NCBI GenBank assembly: GCA_045532715.1
Contig: JAZSGM010000180.1
Coordinates: 1 to 38,205, forward strand
Source of the DNA: Clostridia bacterium
Lineage (GTDB): Bacteria; Bacillota; Clostridia; UBA1381; UMGS1253
DNA length: 38,205 nt
Direction: 5' to 3'
The notes beneath the pieces were generated by a model. That model was not told where the DNA came from. It did no database searches and worked only from the letters and a program-made list of their open reading frames with translations. Shown piece by piece: positions 11,431 to 38,205 of the stretch (within the stretch, counting starts at the first letter, position 1; every line of letters starts with the position of its first letter). Made by a program: the position numbers and the translations under genes.

Positions 11431-13113
11431 ATGAGAATTTTTGACATGCATACGCATATGGGCATTAAGTGCGGTAAGCCGGATGTGCTTGCCGAAATGG
11501 AAAAGGCAGGCGTGTACGGCGGCTGCATCTTTTCGCCGCGCCCGAAGGAGCACAGTAAGGAGTTTGGCGTGGAATTTGAAGAGCGGCTTGCGGCGGTGCT
11601 GGATTTTACGAAGGACCACCGCGACAGACTTTTTCCGATTCTGTGGGTTGACCCGTATGAAAAGAATATTTTTGAAAACATTGATAAGGCTGTAAAGGCA
11701 GGCATCGATGGCTTTAAGATGATTTGCTCGACCTATTTTGTGTATGAAGAGCAGTCACTTGCGGTACTAAAGCATATTGCATCTTATAACAAGCCGGTGT
11801 TTTTCCACTCCGGCATTTTGTGGGACGGCAAGGTTTCGTCGGCATACAATCGCCCGATGAACTGGGAGGCGCTTTTGCCCATCAAGGGATTGCGTTTTTC
11901 GATGGGGCACTGCTCGTGGCCGTGGATTGACGAATGTATTGCGATGTACGGCAAGTTTTTAAATGCCGACAACAAGGGCACGCGTGAGCACGCAGAGATG
12001 TTTCTGGATTTGACACCCGGCACGCCGGACATCTACCGTGAGGAGCTTTTGGAAAAGCTGTTTACCATCGGCTATGATTTTGAAAACAATGTATTTTTCG
12101 GAACGGACTGTTATTCACAGCACTACAATCCGGACTGGACAAAGCATTGGTTAGATACTGACCGCAAAATTATGGACAAGCTCGGTGTCAGCAAGGCGGT
12201 ACGCGAAAAGATTTACTTCGACAATCTTCTGCGCTTCCTTGGTAAGAGTGAGGCAGTTATTGAGCATGCACGTCCGAGTGAGGACAATTCCAATGCGTGG
12301 AGCCCGGTCAATGGCGCAGTGTATGAAATCATTGAGAAGTGGTATAAAAAATTAAGCTTCCCGAAGGTGTATGATGCGGCGTTTAAAAAGGCAATGCGCG
12401 ACATTAAAATTTCCGACGCGATTACAATAGAGAATTATGATATGAAAGAAACGGATGGTAAGCGCAATTTGCTTTCGTATTTATTCTTCTGTGAGGCGCT
12501 TTGCGAAAAGTATGCCGCAAAGGGTATCAGCGAGGATGTTTTAATAGCTACATTGCAGGATATTGTAATTTGGCTCGATACATGGAGCGACTTAAAGGGC
12601 GAGATGTATCTTGGCGAACTCTCGTGGCTCAGATATCATATGTCGATGCGGCTGTTCAGGCTCGGCAGATTGCAGTTTTGTATAGCAGGCGCAGGGCATG
12701 ATATTCCGTCTGCAAATGTAAAAAAAGGCGAACCGGTCATTGAAGTGCACATTCCGGAGGCCGGCAAATTGGACCGTGCAAGCTGCGAAGCCAGCCTTGC
12801 GCAGGCAAGAGAATTTTTCAAAACATATTTTCCGGAATACGATTACAAGTGCTTTACCTGCCACAGCTGGCTCTTGGACGAATCCTTAAAGGACATTTTA
12901 GGTGCAGAGAGCAACATAAGCAAATTCCGTGAGATGTTTGTTTTGGATGTTGCAGAAGAATCTGATGCAATATTTAAGTATGTGTTCCGCTGGAATGCGA
13001 CGAGAAATCAAATACTGAAAATGCCGTGTGCCTCTGGCTTTGCAAGCAGGGTGCAAAAAAAGGCGCGCGAAGGCGGTAAGTTTTACGAAACCGTCGGTTG
13101 GATTCAAAAATAG
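11431..13113 (+). CDS. Fusion: amidohydrolase-type TIM-barrel hydrolase + GNAT-like acyltransferase-domain module
   Basis: N-terminus MRIFDMHTHMG and FHSGILWD fit metal-dependent amidohydrolases. The C-terminal ~270 aa carry GRLQF, VHIPE and CHSWLLD motifs that I remember from stand-alone 'acyltransferase domain-containing' proteins. Confidence 0.6.
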   Translation: MRIFDMHTHMGIKCGKPDVLAEMEKAGVYGGCIFSPRPKEHSKEFGVEFEERLAAVLDFTKDHRDRLFPILWVDPYEKNIFENIDKAVKAGIDGFKMICSTYFVYEEQSLAVLKHIASYNKPVFFHSGILWDGKVSSAYNRPMNWEALLPIKGLRFSMGHCSWPWIDECIAMYGKFLNADNKGTREHAEMFLDLTPGTPDIYREELLEKLFTIGYDFENNVFFGTDCYSQHYNPDWTKHWLDTDRKIMDKLGVSKAVREKIYFDNLLRFLGKSEAVIEHARPSEDNSNAWSPVNGAVYEIIEKWYKKLSFPKVYDAAFKKAMRDIKISDAITIENYDMKETDGKRNLLSYLFFCEALCEKYAAKGISEDVLIATLQDIVIWLDTWSDLKGEMYLGELSWLRYHMSMRLFRLGRLQFCIAGAGHDIPSANVKKGEPVIEVHIPEAGKLDRASCEASLAQAREFFKTYFPEYDYKCFTCHSWLLDESLKDILGAESNISKFREMFVLDVAEESDAIFKYVFRWNATRNQILKMPCASGFASRVQKKAREGGKFYETVGWIQK

Positions 13114-13118
13114 AAAAA

Positions 13119-13150
13119 CGCTCTCCCTTATTTAAGGGGAGGGCGTTTTA
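13119..13150. terminator. Bidirectional terminator (560-aa gene / smORF copy 1)
   Basis: AAAAA, stem CGCTCTCCC.../...GGGGAGGGCG, TTTT. Confidence 0.7.
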
Positions 13151-13157
13151 GCTTTGC

Positions 13158-13271
13158 TTAGCTTTCTTTTGCGCAAATATATGCATCTTCCATTTTGCAT
13201 TGCAGCTGCTTTAATTCTTCAATCATATCCGTGATTTTGTTAAACACTTCAAAATACAGTTTTTCGTCCAT
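13158..13271 (-). CDS. Unannotated 37-aa small protein MDEKLYFEVFNKITDMIEELKQLQCKMEDAYICAKES (copy 1)
   Basis: ATG at 13271, GAGGTG SD (13283-13278) 6 nt upstream, TAA at 13160-13158, terminator downstream. A second copy encodes the identical peptide, and its only 2 nt differences are third-position synonymous changes. Confidence 0.65.
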   Translation of the reverse strand: MDEKLYFEVFNKITDMIEELKQLQCKMEDAYICAKES

Positions 13272-13285
13272 CGTTTTCACCTCTA

Positions 13286-13317
13286 AAATAAAAAAATGCG
13301 CAGCCGAGGCCACGCAT
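13286..13317 (-). terminator. Intrinsic terminator between the leader and the smORF RBS (copy 1)
   Basis: Minus strand: AUGCGUGGC CUCG GCUGCGCAU (9-bp stem) followed by U7. It ends about 8 nt before the SD. Confidence 0.75.
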
Positions 13318-13435
13318 GAAAAACGAGGTCTGTTTGCTGCGACGCAATCACATACACCAACACGGTTATGAGAACCAGACCTGCGTTTTTACCTGAACGC
13401 AAGTCGTGTTAGTGTATATTGTGATTTCGTCGCAA
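13318..13435 (-). ncRNA. Structured leader / candidate sRNA, variant 1
   Basis: Starts at the predicted TSS. The 29-nt arm (13433-13405) pairs with the 26-nt arm (13364-13339), about 25 bp with one 3-nt bulge. Includes G-U pairs that would be A-C on the other strand. The apical 40 nt contain a 9-bp hairpin. Confidence 0.6.
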
Positions 13436-13439
13436 CATT

Positions 13440-13468
13440 ATTGTATCATATTTTTAAAAGGCTGTCTA
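13440..13468 (-). promoter_or_regulatory. Sigma-A-type promoter of module 1
   Basis: Minus strand: TAGACA (13468-13463), 17 nt, TACAAT (13445-13440), with TG one base upstream of the -10. Confidence 0.65.
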
Positions 13469-13492
13469 TACCTTTTCGTCGCAGATTTCGAC

Positions 13493-13530
13493 AAAAAGCG
13501 CCCTTCCCTTAGATCAGGGAGGGCGTTTTA
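13493..13530. terminator. Hairpin terminator at the junction of the two modules
   Basis: AAAAA GCGCCCTTCCCT tagatc AGGGAGGGCG TTTT. Confidence 0.7.
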
Positions 13531-13537
13531 GCTTTGC

Positions 13538-13651
13538 TTAGCTTTCTTTTGCGCAAATATATGCATCTTCCATTTTGCATTGCAGCTGTTTTAATTCTTC
13601 AATCATATCCGTGATTTTGTTAAACACCTCAAAATACAGTTTTTCGTCCAT
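13538..13651 (-). CDS. Unannotated 37-aa small protein, copy 2 (identical peptide)
   Basis: Same SD and ATG geometry as copy 1. It differs from copy 1 only at 13589 (AAG>AAA, Lys21) and 13628 (GAA>GAG, Glu8). Confidence 0.65.
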   Translation of the reverse strand: MDEKLYFEVFNKITDMIEELKQLQCKMEDAYICAKES

Positions 13652-13665
13652 CGGTTTCACCTCTA

Positions 13666-13697
13666 AAATAAAAAAATGCGCAGCCGAAGCCACGCAT
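13666..13697 (-). terminator. Intrinsic terminator between the leader and the smORF RBS (copy 2)
   Basis: Same hairpin as copy 1, with the loop changed to UUCG, followed by U7. Confidence 0.75.
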
Positions 13698-13826
13698 GAA
13701 AAATACATGACTCCGTGTCGTCAAACAAATCCACATTCTAACAGAAAGTATGCAGAATAGAGCATGTATTTTTACCGGAAGGTAAAAAACATACTTTCTG
13801 TTAATGTATTGAGATTTGTTTGACAG
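13698..13826 (-). ncRNA. Structured leader / candidate sRNA, variant 2
   Basis: The 35-nt arm (13824-13790) pairs with the 33-nt arm (13752-13720): 12 bp, an internal loop, then 5 + 13 bp. The apical 37 nt contain an 8-bp hairpin UUUUUACC-uucc-GGUAAAAA. Confidence 0.6.
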
Positions 13827-13830
13827 CATT

Positions 13831-13859
13831 ATTATATCATATTTTCAAAAGGCTGTCTA
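13831..13859 (-). promoter_or_regulatory. Sigma-A-type promoter of module 2
   Basis: Minus strand: TAGACA (13859-13854), 17 nt, TATAAT (13836-13831), with an upstream TG. Confidence 0.65.
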
Positions 13860-13883
13860 TACCTTTTCGTCGCAGATTTCGAC

Positions 13884-13908
13884 AAAAAGCGCCCATATGG
13901 GCGCTTTT
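13884..13908. terminator. Bidirectional terminator after the kinase gene
   Basis: AAAAA GCGCCCA t(a) TGGGCGC TTTT. Confidence 0.7.
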
Positions 13909-13933
13909 AATCGGCTTTGCCAAAGATGCATAT

Positions 13934-14683
13934 TTATTCGTAGTCCATTACATCTGCCCAGGCAAGCAGGAATTCACGTTCGTGCTCGTTGCCCTTCACA
14001 GACTGGGATGCAGCGACGATCGGCATCCATTTTTGCACATACTGCATTGCGGTATCGCTCTTTTTGCAGAACAAGTCGAGATATTTCTTTGCACCTGCTT
14101 CATCACCGGCAAGGCAGAACAAGAGGTAGGTTCTTGCTGCATCGGCGGAGGCATTGCCCTGCGTTGCGTGCGACCAGTCAAGGATATACGGCGTGCCGTC
14201 TGTTTGTACAACAATGTTGGACGGATTAAAGTCGCCGTGGCAGACCTTGTTGTGCTTCGGCATACCTTCAAGGCGGGTATGCAGCTCGTAGCGCGTGGTC
14301 GCATCTAAAGTGGTCTGGCTGATTTTGCGATGCATTTTATCACGCAGCTTGTTTAAGAGCGGTGCGGTTTTACTGTGCATCGTAAGCTGTAAATCCACAA
14401 AGAAGGCGAGATATTCGTCCTTCTTGTCCGGATTTTCTTCCATCAGCTGTGCCAGGGTTTTGCCTTCGATATATTCGGTAATGATTGCCCACTTGCCGTC
14501 GATGGTGGTAACCTCTAAAATTTTCGGAATGTTTAAGCCGGTATCCTCTACTCTTGCGTGGTTGAGCGCTTCGTTTAAAATGTCAGCCTTGGAAAAATCG
14601 GCATTGAATACTTTGATACAGCGGTTCTCTTCGAGATAGACCGTCTTGTTTTTTCTCACTGCAATGACTTTATCGAGCTTCAT
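13934..14683 (-). CDS. APH/choline-kinase-family small-molecule kinase
   Basis: 249 aa with the catalytic-loop motif CHGDFNPSNIVV and YILDWSHA. Confidence 0.75.
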   Translation of the reverse strand: MKLDKVIAVRKNKTVYLEENRCIKVFNADFSKADILNEALNHARVEDTGLNIPKILEVTTIDGKWAIITEYIEGKTLAQLMEENPDKKDEYLAFFVDLQLTMHSKTAPLLNKLRDKMHRKISQTTLDATTRYELHTRLEGMPKHNKVCHGDFNPSNIVVQTDGTPYILDWSHATQGNASADAARTYLLFCLAGDEAGAKKYLDLFCKKSDTAMQYVQKWMPIVAASQSVKGNEHEREFLLAWADVMDYE

Positions 14684-18551: not shown

Positions 18552-19589
18552 CTAATTTAAGTATGTATAAATCATTTTTGAAATTTCGCCAAAGGTCGTG
18601 CGCACATCTGCCGTGCCGAAATCTGTTACGCTGATACACAGAATGTAATCAAAATTCGGGGAATATATAATGCCCACATCCAACTCAGCAGTGCTGTTTT
18701 CGCCTGTCTTATGCGCAACAACGGTACCTTCCGGTAAAAAGAGCGGAATTTTAAAGTTACGCGTCTGCTGCTTTAACAGCTCCAGCATTTCCGAATCGTA
18801 TGCCGGGGAAACACATTCTCCGAAATACAGCTTGCGCAGGACAGTTGCACAGTCGGCTACGGAAGTTGTATTCTGTCCGGGTGTGACGGTTTTTACATCA
18901 AAGAGCATATGCTCCTCTTTTGTGCTTTTTGCGCCAAGTGACCTTGCAAGTGCAGTTACTTTCTGTGCGCCGACGGCAAAGCTACCGGTACCGATTGCAG
19001 TTGTGACAGCATTGGAGGCTACATTGGAGCTTTCGGTAATCATTGCACGCACCTGCGCGGCAAGCTCGTTGGTCATCGAAATGTTTTTGTCATTGATTTC
19101 GTTATACAGCGTTATCATATTAAACAGCTTGATGGTGCTTGCTGCAGTCACCGTGCGGTTGTTGATACCGAACTGTACGCTTGTTCCCGGAATTTCAAAG
19201 TATACGGACCAGTTACCGGCTGCATCCTTGAGCTTGTCTGATACCATATCCCGAAGCTCGTTTGCATCATAATTGAGCAGCGGCTCCTCCGTTAAACCTT
19301 CGATATGGCTGTCGGCACGTTCAAGCAGCAGTTGTACGCTTTTATCCCTGAAATGGTGTGTGTTATACAGATGCTTTGCTGCTTTAAGATTTTGCATGGC
19401 ACCTTCATAAGCATCCTCATTGGAATACTTCAGCGCAAATACACTTTTGCAGTATTTTTCAATATCATCAGCGATATCTGCTTCGCGCGCACTTGCGTAC
19501 TGCAGTAGGGCAATCGCTACGATAATCAAAATTAAAACCACTGATATTATAGTGGCCAATAATAAATTCTTCTTATTCTTTTTTTTCAT
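18552..19589 (-). CDS. Membrane-anchored class-A beta-lactamase-like serine hydrolase
   Basis: STIK (SxxK) and HKTG motifs. N-terminal KK-rich segment plus one TM helix. I prefer the ATG at 19589 (GGGAG SD) to the longer ORF-track start at 19640. Confidence 0.7.
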   Translation of the reverse strand: MKKKNKKNLLLATIISVVLILIIVAIALLQYASAREADIADDIEKYCKSVFALKYSNEDAYEGAMQNLKAAKHLYNTHHFRDKSVQLLLERADSHIEGLTEEPLLNYDANELRDMVSDKLKDAAGNWSVYFEIPGTSVQFGINNRTVTAASTIKLFNMITLYNEINDKNISMTNELAAQVRAMITESSNVASNAVTTAIGTGSFAVGAQKVTALARSLGAKSTKEEHMLFDVKTVTPGQNTTSVADCATVLRKLYFGECVSPAYDSEMLELLKQQTRNFKIPLFLPEGTVVAHKTGENSTAELDVGIIYSPNFDYILCISVTDFGTADVRTTFGEISKMIYTYLN

Positions 19590-28869: not shown

Positions 28870-29718
28870 GTGCTGTTTTTATTTTACGAGAATTGTAATT
28901 TCTGCTGTTTTCGGAAGTGCGAGTATGCGCGCGAGCACGGTGGCAAGGATGTGCGCACACGCTCCTGCTTTCGCATAGACGATCAGGTTTTCATCGACGC
29001 AGGTGCCGATTTTGCGGCACAGTCGATGCACTATCGCGAAGACATTTTTGATTTGGAGCATATTTTATTTACGCATACGCACCACGACCACTGCGACGAT
29101 TATCTGTACTGGTACCGTATGGTGGTCAAGGGCGAGGATAAGCCGACGCACAAGCTGCACATGTATTTTGCACCGGGCGGTAAGGCAAAAATGGAAAAGG
29201 GGCTTGCGCGCTTTGCAAACGACCCGCGCTGCAACCCGGATGTTGTAGAGCTGCACGAGTTAGAGTTTTATAAGACAGTGCAGGTCGGACCGTATAAGGT
29301 AACGCCGCTTAAGGGCCATCATACGACGAATTATGAAGCGCATTCGGCGAACTACTTAATCGAATTTCCGAGCGGCAAAAAGATGTATTATGCGGTGGAT
29401 TCCGGCATCTATGTCGAGGAAACCTTCGAATACCTTAAAAATGTAAAGCTCGATTTGCTTATCGGCGAATGTACATTTATGACGGAAACGGAATACCCGG
29501 GCGGTCATATGAATTTGCATATGGAACAGCTGACGCTGGATCGACTTTGGGAGCAGGGTACAATTGATAAAGACTCCCTTATTTACATAACGCACATTTG
29601 CGGCGTATATAAAACGCACGCGGAGCTTGAGCAGTACTGGCAGGCGCTCGATGTGCCGTACGATGTAAAGGTCGCTTACGATGGCTTATCAATTGCAGAA
29701 GAAGCGAAAGTATTTTAA
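28870..29718 (+). CDS. MBL-fold metallo-hydrolase (PhnP-like) with a chimeric 5' end
   Basis: THTHHDHCDD (HxHxDH) and CEYAREHGGKDVRTRS motifs. GTG start with an AGGTGG SD. Codons 3-16 are the reverse complement of the 3' end of the lyase gene (the 42-bp repeat). Confidence 0.75.
   Translation: MLFLFYENCNFCCFRKCEYAREHGGKDVRTRSCFRIDDQVFIDAGADFAAQSMHYREDIFDLEHILFTHTHHDHCDDYLYWYRMVVKGEDKPTHKLHMYFAPGGKAKMEKGLARFANDPRCNPDVVELHELEFYKTVQVGPYKVTPLKGHHTTNYEAHSANYLIEFPSGKKMYYAVDSGIYVEETFEYLKNVKLDLLIGECTFMTETEYPGGHMNLHMEQLTLDRLWEQGTIDKDSLIYITHICGVYKTHAELEQYWQALDVPYDVKVAYDGLSIAEEAKVF
28876..28917. repeat. 42-bp perfect direct repeat, left copy
   Basis: TTTTTATTTTACGAGAATTGTAATTTCTGCTGTTTTCGGAAG is identical to 35352-35393. 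Confidence 0.95.
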
Positions 29719-29727
29719 AGCAAACTG

Positions 29728-29766
29728 AAAAAGGAGGTGTGGAAATTTTCCACACCGCTATTTTTG
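29728..29766. terminator. Bidirectional terminator hairpin, copy A of a repeated element
   Basis: AAAAAGGAGGTGTGGAAATTTTCCACACCGCTATTTTT. About 35/39 identical to 35318-35356. Confidence 0.8.
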
Positions 29767-31422
29767 AATTGTGACAGTGTTTTTGTTATAATCTACGGTT
29801 ATAACGGTTGCGTCGCTGTAGGTTACCGCAAATACATCTTTACGGATTTCCTTGTGTGCTTGGATGAATTCTGTTTGCAGGTGCACCAGGGTTTTGTATT
29901 CTTCATAGGCTTCCTTGATTTTAGATGCGCTGTATGCAAGCTGCTCGTCTGTGTCAATCATCAAATCCTCTTTGCCGAGCCAATCGTCCTGATGACTGCC
30001 CTCTAAGAATTTAGAATAGATATAAAACGCCGGTCTTGCGCCGTCTTCTATTACCGTAAGACGGTTTTTCGGATGCTTAATCGGATAATTTACGGTGTCT
30101 GTTGTGGAGTTGTAGAGCATAATGCCGTGGTACACAATCTGCCAGAGCGGCACGGTTTTGTCGCAAAGCGCATCCTCTGTTGCCGGCCAGGACACATAAA
30201 GACCGTAATCTAACAGACCGGCTGCAAAGTCAAAGCACCCTTCGGATGCAAAGCCGCCGAACAAATCCCGGCTGAGTTGCATGATTTCATTATAAATCTC
30301 AACCGTTTGCTTAGAATTGACCGGGTGATTTTTATCGTAGCACCACGCCGGCGGCACAACGGTCATTACATCTATGTAATGCAGTCCGGCAAAGCCTAAG
30401 TCCTTTACTTTCGGCAGTTCGGCCTTTGCAAGCTCCAATGCTTTTGCAGGGCAAAGTTTATGCGTTCTGCCGCCGCTCCAGTTTATGGTGTCCATCACCG
30501 GTGTGCCGTCCTTGCGCTTAGCAACGATATCTTCCGAGAAGGTGTCGGCAATGCTGTAGCCGTCGGTGCTGTTGGTGTGGCACACAATCTGATAGCCGTT
30601 GTTTTGCGCGTAGGCAATTAAGTGGCGCAGCCTTTCTTCACCACCGAGTTTTTCTTCGACGGGAAAGATTTGCGGCCATCTGCCGTCGTGTCCGCTTTTG
30701 TTCCAGCCGACCAGGCAAAGCTGTGCCTTGTCAACGCCTTGCGCTTTTAAAGCATCGATCAAAACGCACACGCGGTCAAAGGTGCAGGCAACGTGCATCT
30801 CGGGTTCGTTTTCGTTCGTTTGCTCAAGCACGGTTGCAGGTGCGGGTTTCCAGCCCATTCGGATGCGGATTTCCGGCGCCTTTGCTGCATAGGCCAAAGC
30901 CTCGCGTTCTTTCATTTTTTCTAAAAGCGGTTTTATGTGACCGTTATTTAGCTGATAATTTCTGTACGCAACTGCCATATCGCTGTAGGTCGCCACAGCA
31001 TCGAGTTTTAAAACGCGAATGCGGATATCCTCGTACGGACGGTCGCCGTTTAAGTAAAATCTCGGATAAATATAATATTTTTCGTCCTTTACACCGAAAA
31101 CAAGGTGAAATTCGTGTTTGAAGCCTTCTGCAATCAAAAGAAGACACAGATTTTGTTTTTTTACGCCGAAAATCGGCATTAAATCCTGCTTATACACGCG
31201 CTCTCCGTCAGGTTTTTTATTAAACAAACAAAGGCGACTGCCCTTTTTATTTGCGTCAGCAATCACATAATAGCCGTCTTCGCCTGCGGTGGCTGTAAAG
31301 CTTTCTGCAACAAAGTCAACATACGCCGCGCCGGGAGAAACCTTTTCTTTTTCCAGCGTATAGGTATTATCGCTTTTTTGAGCAGAATAAGTATTGCCGA
31401 GATTATCTGAAATCTTCCACAT
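29758..31422 (-). CDS. Glycoside-hydrolase-like TIM-barrel protein (DUF5696-like)
   Basis: 554 aa, no signal peptide. LVGWNKSGHDGRWPQIFP and GLHYIDVMT resemble GH-like barrels. Its start overlaps the upstream Fe-S gene by 20 nt. Confidence 0.5.
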   Translation of the reverse strand: MWKISDNLGNTYSAQKSDNTYTLEKEKVSPGAAYVDFVAESFTATAGEDGYYVIADANKKGSRLCLFNKKPDGERVYKQDLMPIFGVKKQNLCLLLIAEGFKHEFHLVFGVKDEKYYIYPRFYLNGDRPYEDIRIRVLKLDAVATYSDMAVAYRNYQLNNGHIKPLLEKMKEREALAYAAKAPEIRIRMGWKPAPATVLEQTNENEPEMHVACTFDRVCVLIDALKAQGVDKAQLCLVGWNKSGHDGRWPQIFPVEEKLGGEERLRHLIAYAQNNGYQIVCHTNSTDGYSIADTFSEDIVAKRKDGTPVMDTINWSGGRTHKLCPAKALELAKAELPKVKDLGFAGLHYIDVMTVVPPAWCYDKNHPVNSKQTVEIYNEIMQLSRDLFGGFASEGCFDFAAGLLDYGLYVSWPATEDALCDKTVPLWQIVYHGIMLYNSTTDTVNYPIKHPKNRLTVIEDGARPAFYIYSKFLEGSHQDDWLGKEDLMIDTDEQLAYSASKIKEAYEEYKTLVHLQTEFIQAHKEIRKDVFAVTYSDATVITVDYNKNTVTIQK

Positions 31423-34469: not shown

Positions 34470-35318
34470 ATGCACATTGCAGATATCAATCCGCATATAC
34501 GATTTGCCGAAGAGATTACCTATGCATTGAAAAACCGCAGGTCCTATGTAAAGGATTGTCGTATATTTTATGTTTTGGGCGGCAGAGGCAGCATACGGAT
34601 ACAGGAGAAGGAATATATATTAAAAGAGAATACTTTGTTTTATTGTGCAGGCGGGCAGGAATACAGCATCAATGCCGAAGATTATCTGCATTTCTATGCT
34701 TTAAACTTTGATTTGTCGCAGGCGCACAGAGCGCTTGTCACGCCCTTCGCTCCGGTGGATTTGCAAACAACAAGTCCGACGGGCGTTGTGGATTTGTGCC
34801 TTGTTGAAGACAGCGGGTTTTTAGATTCATTTTTCATTGCGGAGCATGCGGGGGAGTTTAAAAACGGTGTAGCGACTATTGTTAAAGAATTTGCTACGCA
34901 GCAGCTTTTTTTCAGAGAAACCGCCGGCGCGGTGCTGAAGAAAATATTGATTGATTTGCATAAAATGAATACGGATGCTGAAAATAATTCAGCCTCCGCC
35001 GTGCAAAAAATTACGGAATACATACAGCTGCACTACATGGAAGAGATTAAAAACAGCGCTTTAGCAGAGCTGGTGGGGTATCACGAATACTATTTAAATC
35101 GCTGCTTTGTACAGTATACCAGTATGAGTATGCACAAATATGTTTTAAACCTGCGTATTGCAGAGGGCAAGCGACTGCTGCTCAATACCGATTTATCCGT
35201 TGCGAATATTGCTGTACAGGTGGGCTTTAACAGCGCGGCGCATTTTTCCGCTTATTTTAAAAAGGAAACAGATGCTTCGCCGTTAGAGTACAGAAGCAGC
35301 TTTAAACATAGGATATAA
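34470..35318 (+). CDS. AraC-family transcriptional regulator (cupin + HTH)
   Basis: 282 aa from the ATG at 34470 (GGAGGG SD). C-terminal HTH (VANIAVQVGFNSAAHFSAYFKKETDASPLEY). Divergent from the Fe-S operon. Confidence 0.9.
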   Translation: MHIADINPHIRFAEEITYALKNRRSYVKDCRIFYVLGGRGSIRIQEKEYILKENTLFYCAGGQEYSINAEDYLHFYALNFDLSQAHRALVTPFAPVDLQTTSPTGVVDLCLVEDSGFLDSFFIAEHAGEFKNGVATIVKEFATQQLFFRETAGAVLKKILIDLHKMNTDAENNSASAVQKITEYIQLHYMEEIKNSALAELVGYHEYYLNRCFVQYTSMSMHKYVLNLRIAEGKRLLLNTDLSVANIAVQVGFNSAAHFSAYFKKETDASPLEYRSSFKHRI

Positions 35319-35356
35319 AAAAGGCGGTGTGGAAAAATTCCACACCGCTCATTTTT
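35318..35356. terminator. Bidirectional terminator hairpin, copy B of the repeated element
   Basis: AAAAAGGCGGTGTGGAAAAATTCCACACCGCTCATTTTT. 11-bp stem, AAA loop. Confidence 0.8.
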
Positions 35357-35393
35357 ATTTTACGAGAATTGTAATTTCTGCTGTTTTCGGAAG
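35352..35393. repeat. 42-bp perfect direct repeat, right copy (native 3' end of the lyase gene)
   Basis: Covers the stop codon plus the last 12 codons (LPKTAEITILVK) of the minus-strand gene. Confidence 0.95.
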
Positions 35394-38205
35394 GGCGCCT
35401 TTTCGAACAGCGGTTGCCGTAATTATAGCGGTACCGGCTTTCTTTAAAGTGCATGTGCCGTTTGCATCAATACTGATGATAGAAGCATCCGAGCTTGCAT
35501 AAGTTACCGTATATGTGCTCAGGTCTACCGTCGCGCCTGCAGGATCGGTTGCAGAGATGTTCACGGTCATTGTGTCGCCGACCTTGCCTTCCGTATCGGA
35601 AAGCTTGAAGATGGCATTCCATGCCTTCTGGTCTTCTGCTTCCATTGTAGCATCTGCATAGAAACGGACTTCTGCGTAGCTGTTATATGCGCTGCCATCG
35701 CTGTTGGAGATGGTGTTGAATCGTACATATCTTGCACGCACATCGCCGAGTGCAAACACGGTCGGACCATCTTTAAGCTCGGTTGTAATGCTTGGCAGAA
35801 GTGTTGTCCATGTCTTGCCGTCGTCGGAGATATCCACGCTTAATGTAAATGAACGCTTGTTGGAGCCGGTGGTTGAAAGTGCAAAGGAGTGCAGCGGCTT
35901 TGCTTCGCCAAAGTCAAAGCTGATCCATTGTTTGCCTTCGCCTGTCCATCTGTTTTCCATACCGGAGGAAATTACGCCGTCTGCGATACCCCACTTCGGA
36001 TATTTGCCCCAGCCGGTGGAGGAGTCGATGTCCATAATCTGAATGGAGGTCGGGTGATCCGGAATGCCGGTGCTGCCTGCTACAAGCAATTCCATCTTGG
36101 AAATAGAGCCTGCACCACCGGTGCCTGCAATGCCTTCAAACGGATTTGGTGTAAAGTGAACATTGTAGTTTACGCCATCGATTGTCACTACAGCCGGGTT
36201 GCCCTGCGCTATGGAAGCTGCGTATGCGCTACCGTTTGTCAAAGCGGTAACCTCGCCAGCAGGCGCATTGACGTAGTAGTCTTTCATTTCCGGACGGAAG
36301 CTGATTTCGTTTGCGCCGGCAAGGATGCGGATGTCGAGCATCTTGCAGGCATCTGCAATTGTATTTTCACTGTAGGCAATATCTTCATCGGAAATTATGA
36401 TAAGACCTCTGTCATCCCAGAATACCTTCTTACCGAGTGCTTCTGCAAGTGCGCGAAGCGGGATGAGCGTTCTGTCGTTATACGTCTGTGCCGGAACATC
36501 CAACATTACGGTTTGTCCGTTCACATTCATTTCCTTGGAGCCGAGTACCATACGGATGACATTGTCGCCGCAGGTGATATCTACAGTCTGTGTTGCCTCT
36601 GTCCAGTCGACTCTTGCACCGAAGTTTTCGGCAATAAATCTTACCGGTACGAGTGTTCTGCTGTTTTCCGTAAACGGATAAACATCCTTGTTGGCGGTAT
36701 CTACATACGTACGTACGCCCTTTGCATATGCGGCAGGGGAGCCGAGCTTGAGTGCGACTACATTGCCGAGGCGTTCCTCGATGCGCTTTGTTTCGCCTTT
36801 GTTTACACTCCAGTCTGCCATCGGCGTTACCACTGTTACATCATTCGGGATGCCTTCGCCTGCGCGCAGCGGAATAAATTCTACGCTCAGCGTCATTTCT
36901 GTGATGTTGTTTACGTGGATTGCGAGCTTTTTATCGCCGGTGTAAGCTGCCATGAACTCGCCCTTCTGCTTTGGCGGATTCGGGCTCGTCGGAAGCGGCT
37001 CAATCGGCATAACGGAAAATGCTGCATCCGTTGGACCTGCGTTGATTCTCACATACAATCTCTTACCGTTGATTTCCAGGAGTGCACCCTTGCCGTCAGC
37101 GGAAAGGGTGATGTCGGCATTGGTGTGCATAAACCAGTAAACTTCGGACGGAACTTTTGTCGAAATTTCGTCCTGCATGACGATTCTTGTACGGTTGTTT
37201 GTCATCATCATACCGCGGTGATGCTTGTTTAAGTCATCGCGTGTACGCGTCATATCTAAAATGCCGTAAGAACCGTTTTCTGCAGAATCGGAGTCGAGCA
37301 ATACTGCGAAACCGTCGTTTTTCTGTCCCGGACCTGCATCCGGATTGATGGTAATGGTGTTATTACCTTCTGTTCTTCTGTAATAGTAGTCCGTACCTTC
37401 GCCGTCGTAACCGCTTTCGATTGTGTAGGTGTTGGAAACGGAGTCTTTACCGGTTAAAAGTGCAAAACGCTCGCCCTCCCAGTCGAGTACGAAAGTACCG
37501 AGACCGTTGTAGGCGTGGAAGGTTTCGTTGTCGCCACCCTGCATTGCCGCAAAGAGCATTGTTTCTCTGTCCCAGCTCGAACGCATCGAGATACCATTCG
37601 GTCCATACTGGCGGTCGTTTTTGTAGAACTTATCGAGTACAAAGTCTGCAGAGCTTACCTTTTCCGGATTGTAGTACACAATCGCTACGCAGGCATCCAT
37701 GCCGCCGTAGAGCATAGATGGATCACTCTGATTTTTCGTCAGTTCATACCATGCGTACTGCGGCTGGTCATATCTGTCTGCAATTCTTAAAAAGGCAGGG
37801 GACGAAACACGACCGCAGGTGGATGCATTATAGTTAAAGCATTTTGTTGCACCGTCATAGTAAATGACGTGGTCAGGTGTCTGTGCAAAGTTTGCCTGAA
37901 GTGCGAAGTTTAAGCAATCCGGCAAGGTTTTGCCCGGTGCGATGCATTCTTCAAAGCTTGCAACGCTGGCAATCAGGTTGCCGACGCCGTAGTTCCAGTA
38001 TTCCATGGATTCCGCAAAACCGCCGTCGTCGGAGATTTCTACGAAGGTGTTCGGCAGATTCTGGGAAATCTCGCGGAAGATATATTCCGAAACGTTCGGC
38101 ACGAGATCGTTGATTGCGATTGCGAACATAACATAGTCGGTCTGTACGCCCATCGCCTGGTTGTGGTATGCATGAAGCACTGTGTAGCCGTTGGAGAGCA
38201 GACCT
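35355..38205 (-). CDS. Large multidomain polysaccharide lyase (heparinase II/III-like), 5' end outside the window
   Basis: The frame is open to the window edge. Heparinase II/III-like region (FHAYNGLGTFVLDWEGERF), two copper-amine-oxidase-N-like repeats (TLVPVRFIAENFGARVDW, TLIPLRALAEALGKKVFW), a discoidin/F5-8 type C-like region (WISFDFGEAKPL, ARYVRFN) and a C-terminal Big_2-like domain. Confidence 0.7.
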   Translation of the reverse strand, partial: GLLSNGYTVLHAYHNQAMGVQTDYVMFAIAINDLVPNVSEYIFREISQNLPNTFVEISDDGGFAESMEYWNYGVGNLIASVASFEECIAPGKTLPDCLNFALQANFAQTPDHVIYYDGATKCFNYNASTCGRVSSPAFLRIADRYDQPQYAWYELTKNQSDPSMLYGGMDACVAIVYYNPEKVSSADFVLDKFYKNDRQYGPNGISMRSSWDRETMLFAAMQGGDNETFHAYNGLGTFVLDWEGERFALLTGKDSVSNTYTIESGYDGEGTDYYYRRTEGNNTITINPDAGPGQKNDGFAVLLDSDSAENGSYGILDMTRTRDDLNKHHRGMMMTNNRTRIVMQDEISTKVPSEVYWFMHTNADITLSADGKGALLEINGKRLYVRINAGPTDAAFSVMPIEPLPTSPNPPKQKGEFMAAYTGDKKLAIHVNNITEMTLSVEFIPLRAGEGIPNDVTVVTPMADWSVNKGETKRIEERLGNVVALKLGSPAAYAKGVRTYVDTANKDVYPFTENSRTLVPVRFIAENFGARVDWTEATQTVDITCGDNVIRMVLGSKEMNVNGQTVMLDVPAQTYNDRTLIPLRALAEALGKKVFWDDRGLIIISDEDIAYSENTIADACKMLDIRILAGANEISFRPEMKDYYVNAPAGEVTALTNGSAYAASIAQGNPAVVTIDGVNYNVHFTPNPFEGIAGTGGAGSISKMELLVAGSTGIPDHPTSIQIMDIDSSTGWGKYPKWGIADGVISSGMENRWTGEGKQWISFDFGEAKPLHSFALSTTGSNKRSFTLSVDISDDGKTWTTLLPSITTELKDGPTVFALGDVRARYVRFNTISNSDGSAYNSYAEVRFYADATMEAEDQKAWNAIFKLSDTEGKVGDTMTVNISATDPAGATVDLSTYTVTYASSDASIISIDANGTCTLKKAGTAIITATAVRKGALPKTAEITILVK

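Follow-up and report, generated by a model that had tools for sequence, protein, structure and literature searches.

Diverged members of one structured leader RNA family, candidate transcription attenuators, precede two tandem copies of a small-protein gene in a Clostridia contig

We analyzed a 38,205-nucleotide (nt) stretch of DNA from a Clostridia bacterium (contig JAZSGM010000180.1 of assembly GCA_045532715.1, positions 1 to 38,205; hereafter, the window), in which two structured leader RNAs precede two copies of a small-protein gene. On the minus strand, from 13900 to 13140, two transcription units were arranged in tandem, each comprising a TTGTCGAAA motif, a sigma-70-type (sigma-A-type) promoter, the leader, an intrinsic terminator, an AGAGGUG Shine-Dalgarno (SD) sequence, a 37-codon open reading frame (ORF), and a second terminator. 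The module consensus promoter was TAGACA-17-TAYAAT with a TG extension. In module B, the TTGTCGAAA motif (13877..13885) lay ~20 nt upstream of the −35 hexamer of a promoter identified by promoter scan (TAGACA-17-TATAAT plus TG extension, 13831..13859); the intrinsic terminator, a family-conserved sequence, was AUGCGUGGC-UUCG-GCUGCGCAU followed by U7 (13676..13697), and the SD at 13664-13658 preceded the ORF at 13538..13651, which encodes the 37-amino-acid (aa) protein MDEKLYFEVFNKITDMIEELKQLQCKMEDAYICAKES. Module A similarly carried the Spo0A-box-like TTGTCGAAA motif (13486..13494), a promoter (TAGACA-17-TACAAT plus TG extension, 13440..13468, promoter scan), an intrinsic terminator found by terminator scan (13296..13317), an SD at 13284-13278, and an ORF at 13158..13271 whose 37-aa protein is identical to that of module B. 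All of these features are on the minus strand, as are those given below unless noted otherwise.

The two modules were almost the same outside the leaders. A direct repeat pair at 13137-13323 and 13517-13703 was 98% identical, and a second pair at 13433-13503 and 13824-13894 was 96% identical; by feature, identity between modules A and B was 96.2% for the terminator plus SD, 98.2% for the ORFs, and ~89% for the promoters. The stretches between these repeats, 112 nt (13324-13435) and 123 nt (13704-13826), were poorly alignable. An earlier reading of these letters without database searches (the sequence-only reading) had proposed that the leaders differ between near-identical flanks, and the alignment bore this out, with 57.8% identity for the leaders against 96-98% for the repeats.

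Next, we analyzed the folding of the two leaders. The leader of module A (type A) folded into a long imperfect hairpin of −50.7 kcal/mol (z = −7.27), and that of module B (type B) into one of −44.5 kcal/mol (z = −7.67); 0/200 shuffled controls folded as well as either leader, so the long hairpins previously proposed for both stand. The general architecture consists of a basal helix P1, a nearly invariant AUA-like bulge on the 5′ side, a second helix P2, an apical helix P3, and a single-stranded 3′ segment J. In the type A hairpin domain (13337..13435), P1 is formed by 13435-13420 with 13352-13337, the AUA bulge lies at 13419-13417, and P2 and P3 are formed by 13416-13406 with 13363-13353 and by 13405-13396 with 13387-13378, respectively. 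In the type B domain (13719..13825), P1 is formed by 13825-13812 with 13732-13719, the bulge is CAAU (13811-13808), P2 is formed by 13807-13789 with 13752-13733, and P3 is the apical hairpin UUUUUACC-UUCC-GGUAAAAA (13788-13769). The arm coordinates given by the sequence-only reading matched these folds, but its base-pair counts were slightly off: the computed helices were 8+7+11 bp with a 10-bp apical hairpin in type A, and 14+4+15 bp with an 8-bp apical hairpin in type B. As it had also noticed, the apical region of each leader encloses a small hairpin and the shared motif GGUAAAAA.

The functional strand is the minus strand, in agreement with the earlier proposal of a minus-strand transcript, because three features pointed the same way. 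The leaders folded better in the sense orientation (−50.7 on the minus strand vs −45.0 kcal/mol on the plus strand for type A; −44.5 vs −42.1 for type B), the terminator kept two G-U pairs, and a profile of the leader family described below scored 85-119 bits on the sense strand of complete copies and 43-75 bits on copies cut by contig ends, whereas antisense scores did not exceed 25 bits. Furthermore, this single profile detected both window leaders (E = 1e-32 and 8e-30), indicating that they are diverged homologues; the description of the leader as a fully replaced sequence was therefore overstated.

Both leaders are members of one previously unannotated leader RNA family of gut Clostridia. 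About 20 instances were found on gut Clostridia contigs through a motif scan, ORF-based look-ups, and BLAST or pattern matches, the collections being scanned with narrow patterns. On contigs carrying relatives of the 37-aa protein, both leaders of the window recurred, ordered as there, at syntenic loci (L001-L007 and L012), and other leader variants were present at L008-L011. An ORF-based genome scan added four loci (L013-L016), all in Clostridia metagenome-assembled genomes; the leaders at L013 and L015 were type A-like, with the same base and apex and wholly different stems. A metagenome scan with the type B apical motif gave nine further loci, and one with the ORF gave no match. BLAST against phage records returned two contigs labelled UNVERIFIED Bacteriophage sp., and the viral scans yielded one true member, L029 (an IMG/VR contig); L026 and L030 from these scans were rejected as chance matches in coding DNA, another viral scan was empty, and a search of a plasmid collection gave no family match. 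In other genomes, type A was represented by L013 and L015, and type B by L008-L011 and L016-L029. A scan of the whole window against Rfam 15 at gathering thresholds gave 0 matches, and at E ≤ 10 positions 13000-14000 gave chance-level matches only (miRNA precursors, STnc320 on a terminator, and similar). Literature searches with DUF6809, attenuators, gut structured RNAs, and sequence strings found no description of the leader family. The examined part of a catalogue of gut structured-RNA candidates held no match, and an earlier description in that catalogue is possible (PMC8040213).

The layout was common to all loci: a near-consensus TG-extended promoter, the hairpin, the terminator, and an SD and ORF on the same strand. 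The 5′ end was UGCGACACAA or a compensated variant, and the terminator consensus was GUGCGURGC-UUCG-GCUGCGCAY. In complete instances, the SD and ORF followed 15-30 nt past the U tract, except at L020, where the called ORF start was ~105 nt downstream. The downstream ORFs were unrelated to one another, encoding the 37-aa helical protein, DUF6809, zinc-ribbon/transmembrane proteins, lipoproteins, a zinc-ribbon-ankyrin protein, and proteins of no assigned kind. Some members lay beside integrases, beside a serine recombinase with a WYL protein and a HipA-like protein, or beside a terminase; others were plainly chromosomal. Mobile-element neighbours, tyrosine integrases among them, were observed at L027 (70-1422), L029 (3482-4603), L020 (1740-7315), and L021 (5744-7003), where the leader seems to drive cargo (“moron”-like) genes of integrative elements or prophages. 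One copy, at L011 (560-850), is decaying: its ORF starts with ATA rather than ATG, S1 (defined below) is mutated (UUCAUGCUG), and the terminator stem is changed on both sides (GUGAC/GUCAC).

Covariation was then employed to analyze the structural support for the fold. On the 19-sequence alignment, 93.2% of cells in P1, P3, and the terminator were paired, with 12 pairs altered on both sides; 0/500 shuffles reached this level, and slid controls gave 29-53%. RNAalifold independently recovered P1 and the terminator. P2 was too variable for sequence alignment, and was therefore assessed by pairing each 5′ arm with the 3′ arm of its own or of other members; the cognate duplexes averaged −16.0 kcal/mol vs −6.4 ± 3.4 kcal/mol for the non-cognate ones. 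The P2 arms were 49% identical on average, and the family arms 34-77%. All members folded into the same hairpin architecture, and their conserved unpaired nucleotides were confined to the AUA-type bulge, J, and a linker, GCAGCAA. These covarying helices uphold the view that the leaders do not reflect neutral drift, and point to a structured minus-strand RNA under selection.

The same results bear on whether the variable part could be a palindromic mobile element, of the type of miniature inverted-repeat transposable elements (MITEs) or repetitive extragenic palindromes (REP), without regulatory function, whose similar architecture follows from palindromy. Correia, ERIC, and REP elements are palindromic repeats that are transcribed into hairpins, and the leaders resemble them as long imperfect palindromes of ~100 bp near genes at several loci. 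The hairpin folds on both strands, and it does occur at unrelated loci, several of them beside integrases or recombinases, as the sequence-only reading had anticipated for a MITE. Nevertheless, the copies were not near-identical: only two occurred in the 38-kb window, 58% identical to each other, and across the family the arms were ~49% identical and covarying, so the copies are diverged and compensated, in contrast to Correia, ERIC, and REP elements. Conservation was strand-specific (85-119 bits in sense for complete copies, at most 25 in antisense), and the conserved unit ran past the palindrome to the segment S2 and the terminator, with covariation between S1 and S2. Furthermore, the element always sat between a promoter and an ORF, in the orientation of the latter, with the same obligate promoter and terminator, which is not the behaviour of a MITE or a REP-like repeat. 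We thus regard this explanation as extremely unlikely.

Two further pairings were identified. The first joins S1, which consists of the 3′ strand of P3 plus the beginning of J, to S2, the segment just upstream of the terminator. In type B, S1 (AAAAAUACAUGCUCU, 13759..13773) has its 5′ part in the P3 3′ strand and its 3′ part single-stranded in the hairpin fold, and S2 (GGAGUCAUGUAUUUUU, 13699..13714; the S2 segment reads GGAGCUAUGCGUUUUU) has two alternative partners, S1 (−15.4 kcal/mol) and the 5′ half of the terminator, the latter pairing giving a 13-bp antiterminator. In type A, duplex computation placed S1 (AAAAACGCAGGUCUGG) at 13375..13390, and S2 (CAGACCUCGUUUUU, 13319..13332) pairs with it at −18.0 kcal/mol and forms an antiterminator of −4.9 kcal/mol. 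Cognate S1:S2 duplexes of −14.4 to −19.0 kcal/mol were present in 18/18 members, compared with −4 to −7.6 kcal/mol for shuffles, and the helix was 91.7% paired on the alignment. The complementarity was kept through differing sequences in type A, type B, the intermediate L027, and L029, with compensated examples such as GGUCUG/CAGACC vs AUGCUC/GGAGCU and UACAUG/CAUGUA vs UGCAUG/(C)AUGCG. The window leaders were orthogonal, with crossed duplexes of −6.6 and −3.4 kcal/mol only. Since S1 and S2 must both lie inside it, the variable unit reaches 3′ beyond the hairpin, to the U run. The proposal of a modular specificity cassette thus holds insofar as S1 and S2 lie in the variable unit, cognate within each leader and non-complementary between them; the replacement of one leader that it also assumed does not. 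The connector between the ends of the 24-37-bp rod is only 5-14 nt long and cannot span it, so S1:S2 and an intact straight hairpin are mutually exclusive; an S1:S2 pseudoknot on the intact hairpin was rejected for this reason, unless the rod folds back sharply.

The second pairing is the antiterminator (S2:S3), in which S2 and the linker GCAGC (GCAGCAA) are able to pair with the terminator 5′ half. It was a plain hairpin with a U-rich loop, was 86% paired on the alignment (slid controls, 24-62%), and was roughly isoenergetic with the terminator; about half of the members had it in their minimum-energy fold. Moreover, when P1 is open, its 3′ strand and the linker can form a mini-hairpin, UUGC-GUCGCA-GCAA (13334..13347 in module A). 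In the family form UUGY-GUCGCA-GCAA (4 bp), the column pair 127-134 was paired in 19/19 members with four pair types, and the closing positions covaried with P1. The mini-hairpin uses the linker and so accounts for its otherwise puzzling conservation; we regard the evidence for it as moderate. Once the 5′ arm was blocked, S1:S2 plus the terminator became the minimum-energy fold in 17/18 members, and RNAalifold on the 5′-truncated RNAs predicted the same combination.

Taken as a model, these pairings make it probable that the leader is a cis-acting bistable transcription attenuator, in which the choice between the hairpin and S1:S2 plus terminator decides read-through. The alternative pairings were shown computationally to exist and to be conserved; we infer from the layout that they control termination. 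The leader lies between promoter and ORF with the terminator directly upstream of the SD, as in the other complete instances, and a conserved antiterminator pairing excludes the terminator. In Fold I, the RNA would begin at the base of the 24-37-bp hairpin and S1 would be locked in its apical part, leaving S2 and the linker GCAGCAA free to form the antiterminator, so that polymerase would read into the ORF. In Fold II, the 5′ arm would be unavailable, S1 would pair with S2, and the P1 3′ strand with the linker; with all antiterminator strands sequestered, the conserved terminator would form and an RNA of ~150 nt would be released. A trans-acting factor would choose between the folds, either through the 5′ arm, which it would occupy or remove, or through an action on the hairpin. 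Candidates would be a ribonuclease (RNase) that cuts the long helix, or a protein or RNA with the AUA bulge or the nascent 5′ arm as its binding site; this part of the model is much less certain than the architecture. An intrinsic terminator ~150 nt from the predicted start likewise sustains the earlier suggestion of an attenuator, a ~150-nt RNA, or both.

The energies also predict different set-points for the two modules. In type B, the antiterminator (−15.7 kcal/mol) was stronger than the terminator (−13.1), and in type A it was weaker (−4.9 vs −14.3), so that module B is predicted to be read-through-prone and module A termination-prone; the same small protein would thereby be expressed through two differently tuned gates. 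One G-to-A change relative to L001 weakens the type A antiterminator yet makes its S1:S2 duplex fully Watson-Crick.

Several points weigh against the attenuator reading. All results are computational, and the transcription start was inferred from the consensus promoter. The alignment consists of ~19 distinct sequences, several of them closely related, and in it the type A rows are out of register for S1:S2. Covariation of the antiterminator was weak (23/500 shuffles reached it), and the antiterminator of the type A copy in the window is the poor one given above. With no more than 4 bp the mini-hairpin is short, and 79% pairing was also reached by one slid control (−3). Fold I was more stable than Fold II by 15-35 kcal/mol, so Fold II needs an effector. 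Finally, a strong promoter and a strong terminator also fit a free-standing small RNA (sRNA).

The last point leads to the alternative that the ~150-nt RNA is itself functional as a free-standing sRNA, with S1 or J acting in trans and the ORF made by incidental read-through; its targets might be S2 of nascent transcripts of the same subtype, as for phage P4 CI, or others. The near-consensus promoter and the strong terminator, with its UUCG tetraloop and U7 tract, would suit such an RNA, as would the conservation of the terminator sequence ahead of unrelated genes and the better conservation of the leaders than of the ORFs. The orthogonality of the S1:S2 codes between subtypes is likewise in its favour, because orthogonality matters mainly if pairing occurs between molecules. 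However, an SD and ORF followed on the same strand in all complete instances, a conserved antiterminator alternative exists, and most of S1 is hidden inside P3 when the RNA adopts the stable fold. A search of the window for targets complementary to the arms returned only chance-level matches, apart from one 16-nt same-sense match in a coding region. We therefore consider a free-standing sRNA unlikely. The 16-nt match, at 18725-18740 on the plus strand, is an exact same-sense copy of the type B apical core (TACCTTCCGGTAAAAA) inside a 362-aa minus-strand ORF, and is probably due to chance (BLAST E = 9e-4 within the window).

A further reading would make S1:S2 an addressable code: terminated leaders, accumulating in abundance, would target nascent transcripts of their own subtype in trans, as in P4 CI-like immunity or in dosage sensing and autoregulation. 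Subtypes A and B, and further alleles such as that of L013, would then serve as orthogonal channels of RNA-RNA regulation in a single genome, which recombination at the common terminator could exchange between genes. Or else the hairpin would be the sensor of a new kind of attenuator, controlled by an effector such as a protein that acts on double-stranded RNA. We offer these proposals as speculation and judge them quite unlikely.

A different role for the long hairpin would be as a substrate of RNase III or another RNase, or as an element of mRNA stability or processing; cleavage would take away the 5′ arm, and what is left would refold to S1:S2 plus terminator as the mature RNA. The length of the double-stranded RNA, 24-37 bp, suffices for RNase III, the AU-rich bulge is nearly invariant, and the 5′-truncated RNA has a well-defined Fold II. 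Nevertheless, processing alone leaves the conserved antiterminator and the position of the terminator before the SD unexplained, and cleavage is probably too slow to affect co-transcriptional termination. We consider this explanation very unlikely.

Other candidates were rejected on the sequence of the leaders. Short ORFs in the hairpin varied in frame and length between members, which excluded a leader peptide. An SD-like GGAG with AUG in S2 had a spacing of 2-3 nt, which is too short, and the motif was missing in type A. An internal promoter at the AUA bulge was without a −35 hexamer at usable spacing. Autoregulation by the 37-aa protein is unlikely, because the RNA also precedes unrelated ORFs.

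We compared the attenuator model with known systems. The pyr leader with PyrR is a multi-layer attenuator of Firmicutes that uses an anti-antiterminator. The rplJ leader with L10(L12)4 (PMC4538822) and the infC leader with L20 (PMC1865079) are further multi-layer anti-antiterminator attenuators of this group. In common with these, the present leaders are promoter-proximal, have the terminator just ahead of the SD, and have an antiterminator that shares a terminator strand, with an upstream pairing (here S1:S2) that sequesters the antiterminator strand. However, the family has an extra layer, in which S1 itself is locked in the 24-37-bp hairpin; its stems are variable in sequence, and the genes downstream are unrelated accessory genes rather than those of one pathway. 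Similarly, riboswitch expression platforms share the exclusive folds, the nearly isoenergetic terminator and antiterminator, and the conservation of the element ahead of varied genes. In contrast to riboswitches, the “sensor” of the leader family is a long, mostly regular helix of variable sequence rather than a compact conserved pocket, its only invariant unpaired features are the AUA-type bulge and J, and its gene context is heterogeneous.

Premature termination is also controlled by RNA-RNA pairing in the phage P4 CI RNA (seqB with seqA/seqC) and in the countertranscript systems pT181, pIP501, and prgQ/Anti-Q. The leaders resemble P4 CI in that a segment within a stable RNA can pair with a stretch further downstream in its own transcript, favouring termination, with covarying specificity; this complementarity was the cognate S1:S2 pairing seen in every member assessed (18/18, −14.4 to −19.0 kcal/mol). 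They differ from P4 CI and pT181-type systems in that the organisms and sequences are unrelated and no antisense promoter was found in the leader by consensus scan. The same scan found no plus-strand promoter-like site in 13000-14000, and on this basis countertranscript attenuation of the pT181/pIP501 type was rejected. A T-box leader was likewise rejected, with no T-box model match in 13000-14000 even at E ≤ 10 and a plain hairpin as antiterminator. A type III toxin-antitoxin arrangement (ToxI-terminator-ToxN) was ruled out by the lack of tandem short repeats, there being only two modules of 380-390 bp, and by an ORF of 37 aa without a Pfam, NCBIfam, or PHROG family.

The origin of the near-identical flanks was examined by comparison between genomes. 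Each leader was 99-100% conserved between the window and L001/L005; against L001, the type B leader was 100% and the type A leader 99.1% identical, whereas the ORFs were 80-91% and the promoters 82-87% identical. The leaders are thus near-invariant between genomes, while ORFs and promoters differ by 9-20% yet match within the window, indicating homogenization of the flanks; the near-identical flanks result from concerted evolution (gene conversion or recombination) around distinct leaders. Types A and B are two anciently diverged subtypes of one family, each present in other genomes. The sequence-only reading had assumed that the whole leader was swapped into one copy; old subtypes in other genomes and homogenized flanks do not support this. 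A comparison of L013 295-440 with L001 4835-4980 showed a sharp junction: the two were 100% identical starting at the first terminator base and continuing past the ORF through the gene that follows it, and upstream of the terminator L013 had a different, third allele of the type A leader, with a different promoter and flanking DNA. The junction reflects recombination at the terminator that both share, or else a chimera made in assembly at this repeat. Whichever way it arose, several distinct leaders are attached to the same homogenized ORF in this lineage.

If confirmed, these leaders would be a new family of cis-regulatory RNAs in uncultured gut Clostridia, apparently a widespread one, that controls accessory genes, among them genes for small proteins and lipoproteins; several of the genes lie on integrative elements. 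The predicted architecture is a natural four-layer strand-exchange switch, with a hairpin lock, an anti-antiterminator, an antiterminator, and a terminator, and the orthogonality that its S1:S2 variants show in nature makes them attractive for mechanistic work as well as for RNA engineering. The locus is also a clean example of concerted evolution, in which coding and promoter sequences are homogenized between tandem paralogues and both regulatory RNAs remain distinct and hardly change. It offers a testable handle on how two different RNA gates come to control one small protein that may be linked to sporulation.

The 37-aa protein is acidic and amphipathic; proteins of 37-100 aa that share the motif (M/L)Y..LFNKITD.IEEL..Q..ME form the broad family of which it is a member. 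The family comprised 296 clusters at E ≤ 1e-3; a query with a 51-aa extended ORF gave only 8 protein matches. Searches of Pfam, NCBIfam, and PHROG assigned it to no family, the only recurrent signal being a weak similarity to the C-terminus of NF005320/PRK06851. In every module carrying the 37-aa ORF, TTTGTCGAAA was present ~20 nt upstream of a weak −35 hexamer (TAGACA/TGGACA), often followed by a second copy, GCGACGAAA/GGTCGAAA. It was also found upstream of −35 hexamers at L008, L010, L013, L015, and L016, and was absent from family members ahead of other ORFs, whose −35 is TTGACA. We take the TTGTCGAAA/TTTGTCGAAA motif to resemble the Spo0A (0A) box TGTCGAA, and this resemblance suggests control at the onset of sporulation. 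The window contained three matches to the Spo0A-box-like motif vs 0.7 expected, and 6/100 shuffles reached three.

The terminators that follow the two ORFs (13115-13149 and 13500-13527) are GC-rich hairpins with A and U runs on their flanks and can therefore work bidirectionally; a convergent 560-aa amidohydrolase/GNAT-like gene (11431-13113) shares the terminator at 13115-13149. Elsewhere in the window, further repeat pairs at 28876-28921 / 35352-35397 and 29728-29770 / 35318-35360 were intergenic-looking, with 98% and 84% identity, respectively, and one of them holds a palindrome, GGTGTGGAAA(T/A)TTTCCACACC, that looks like a shared terminator.

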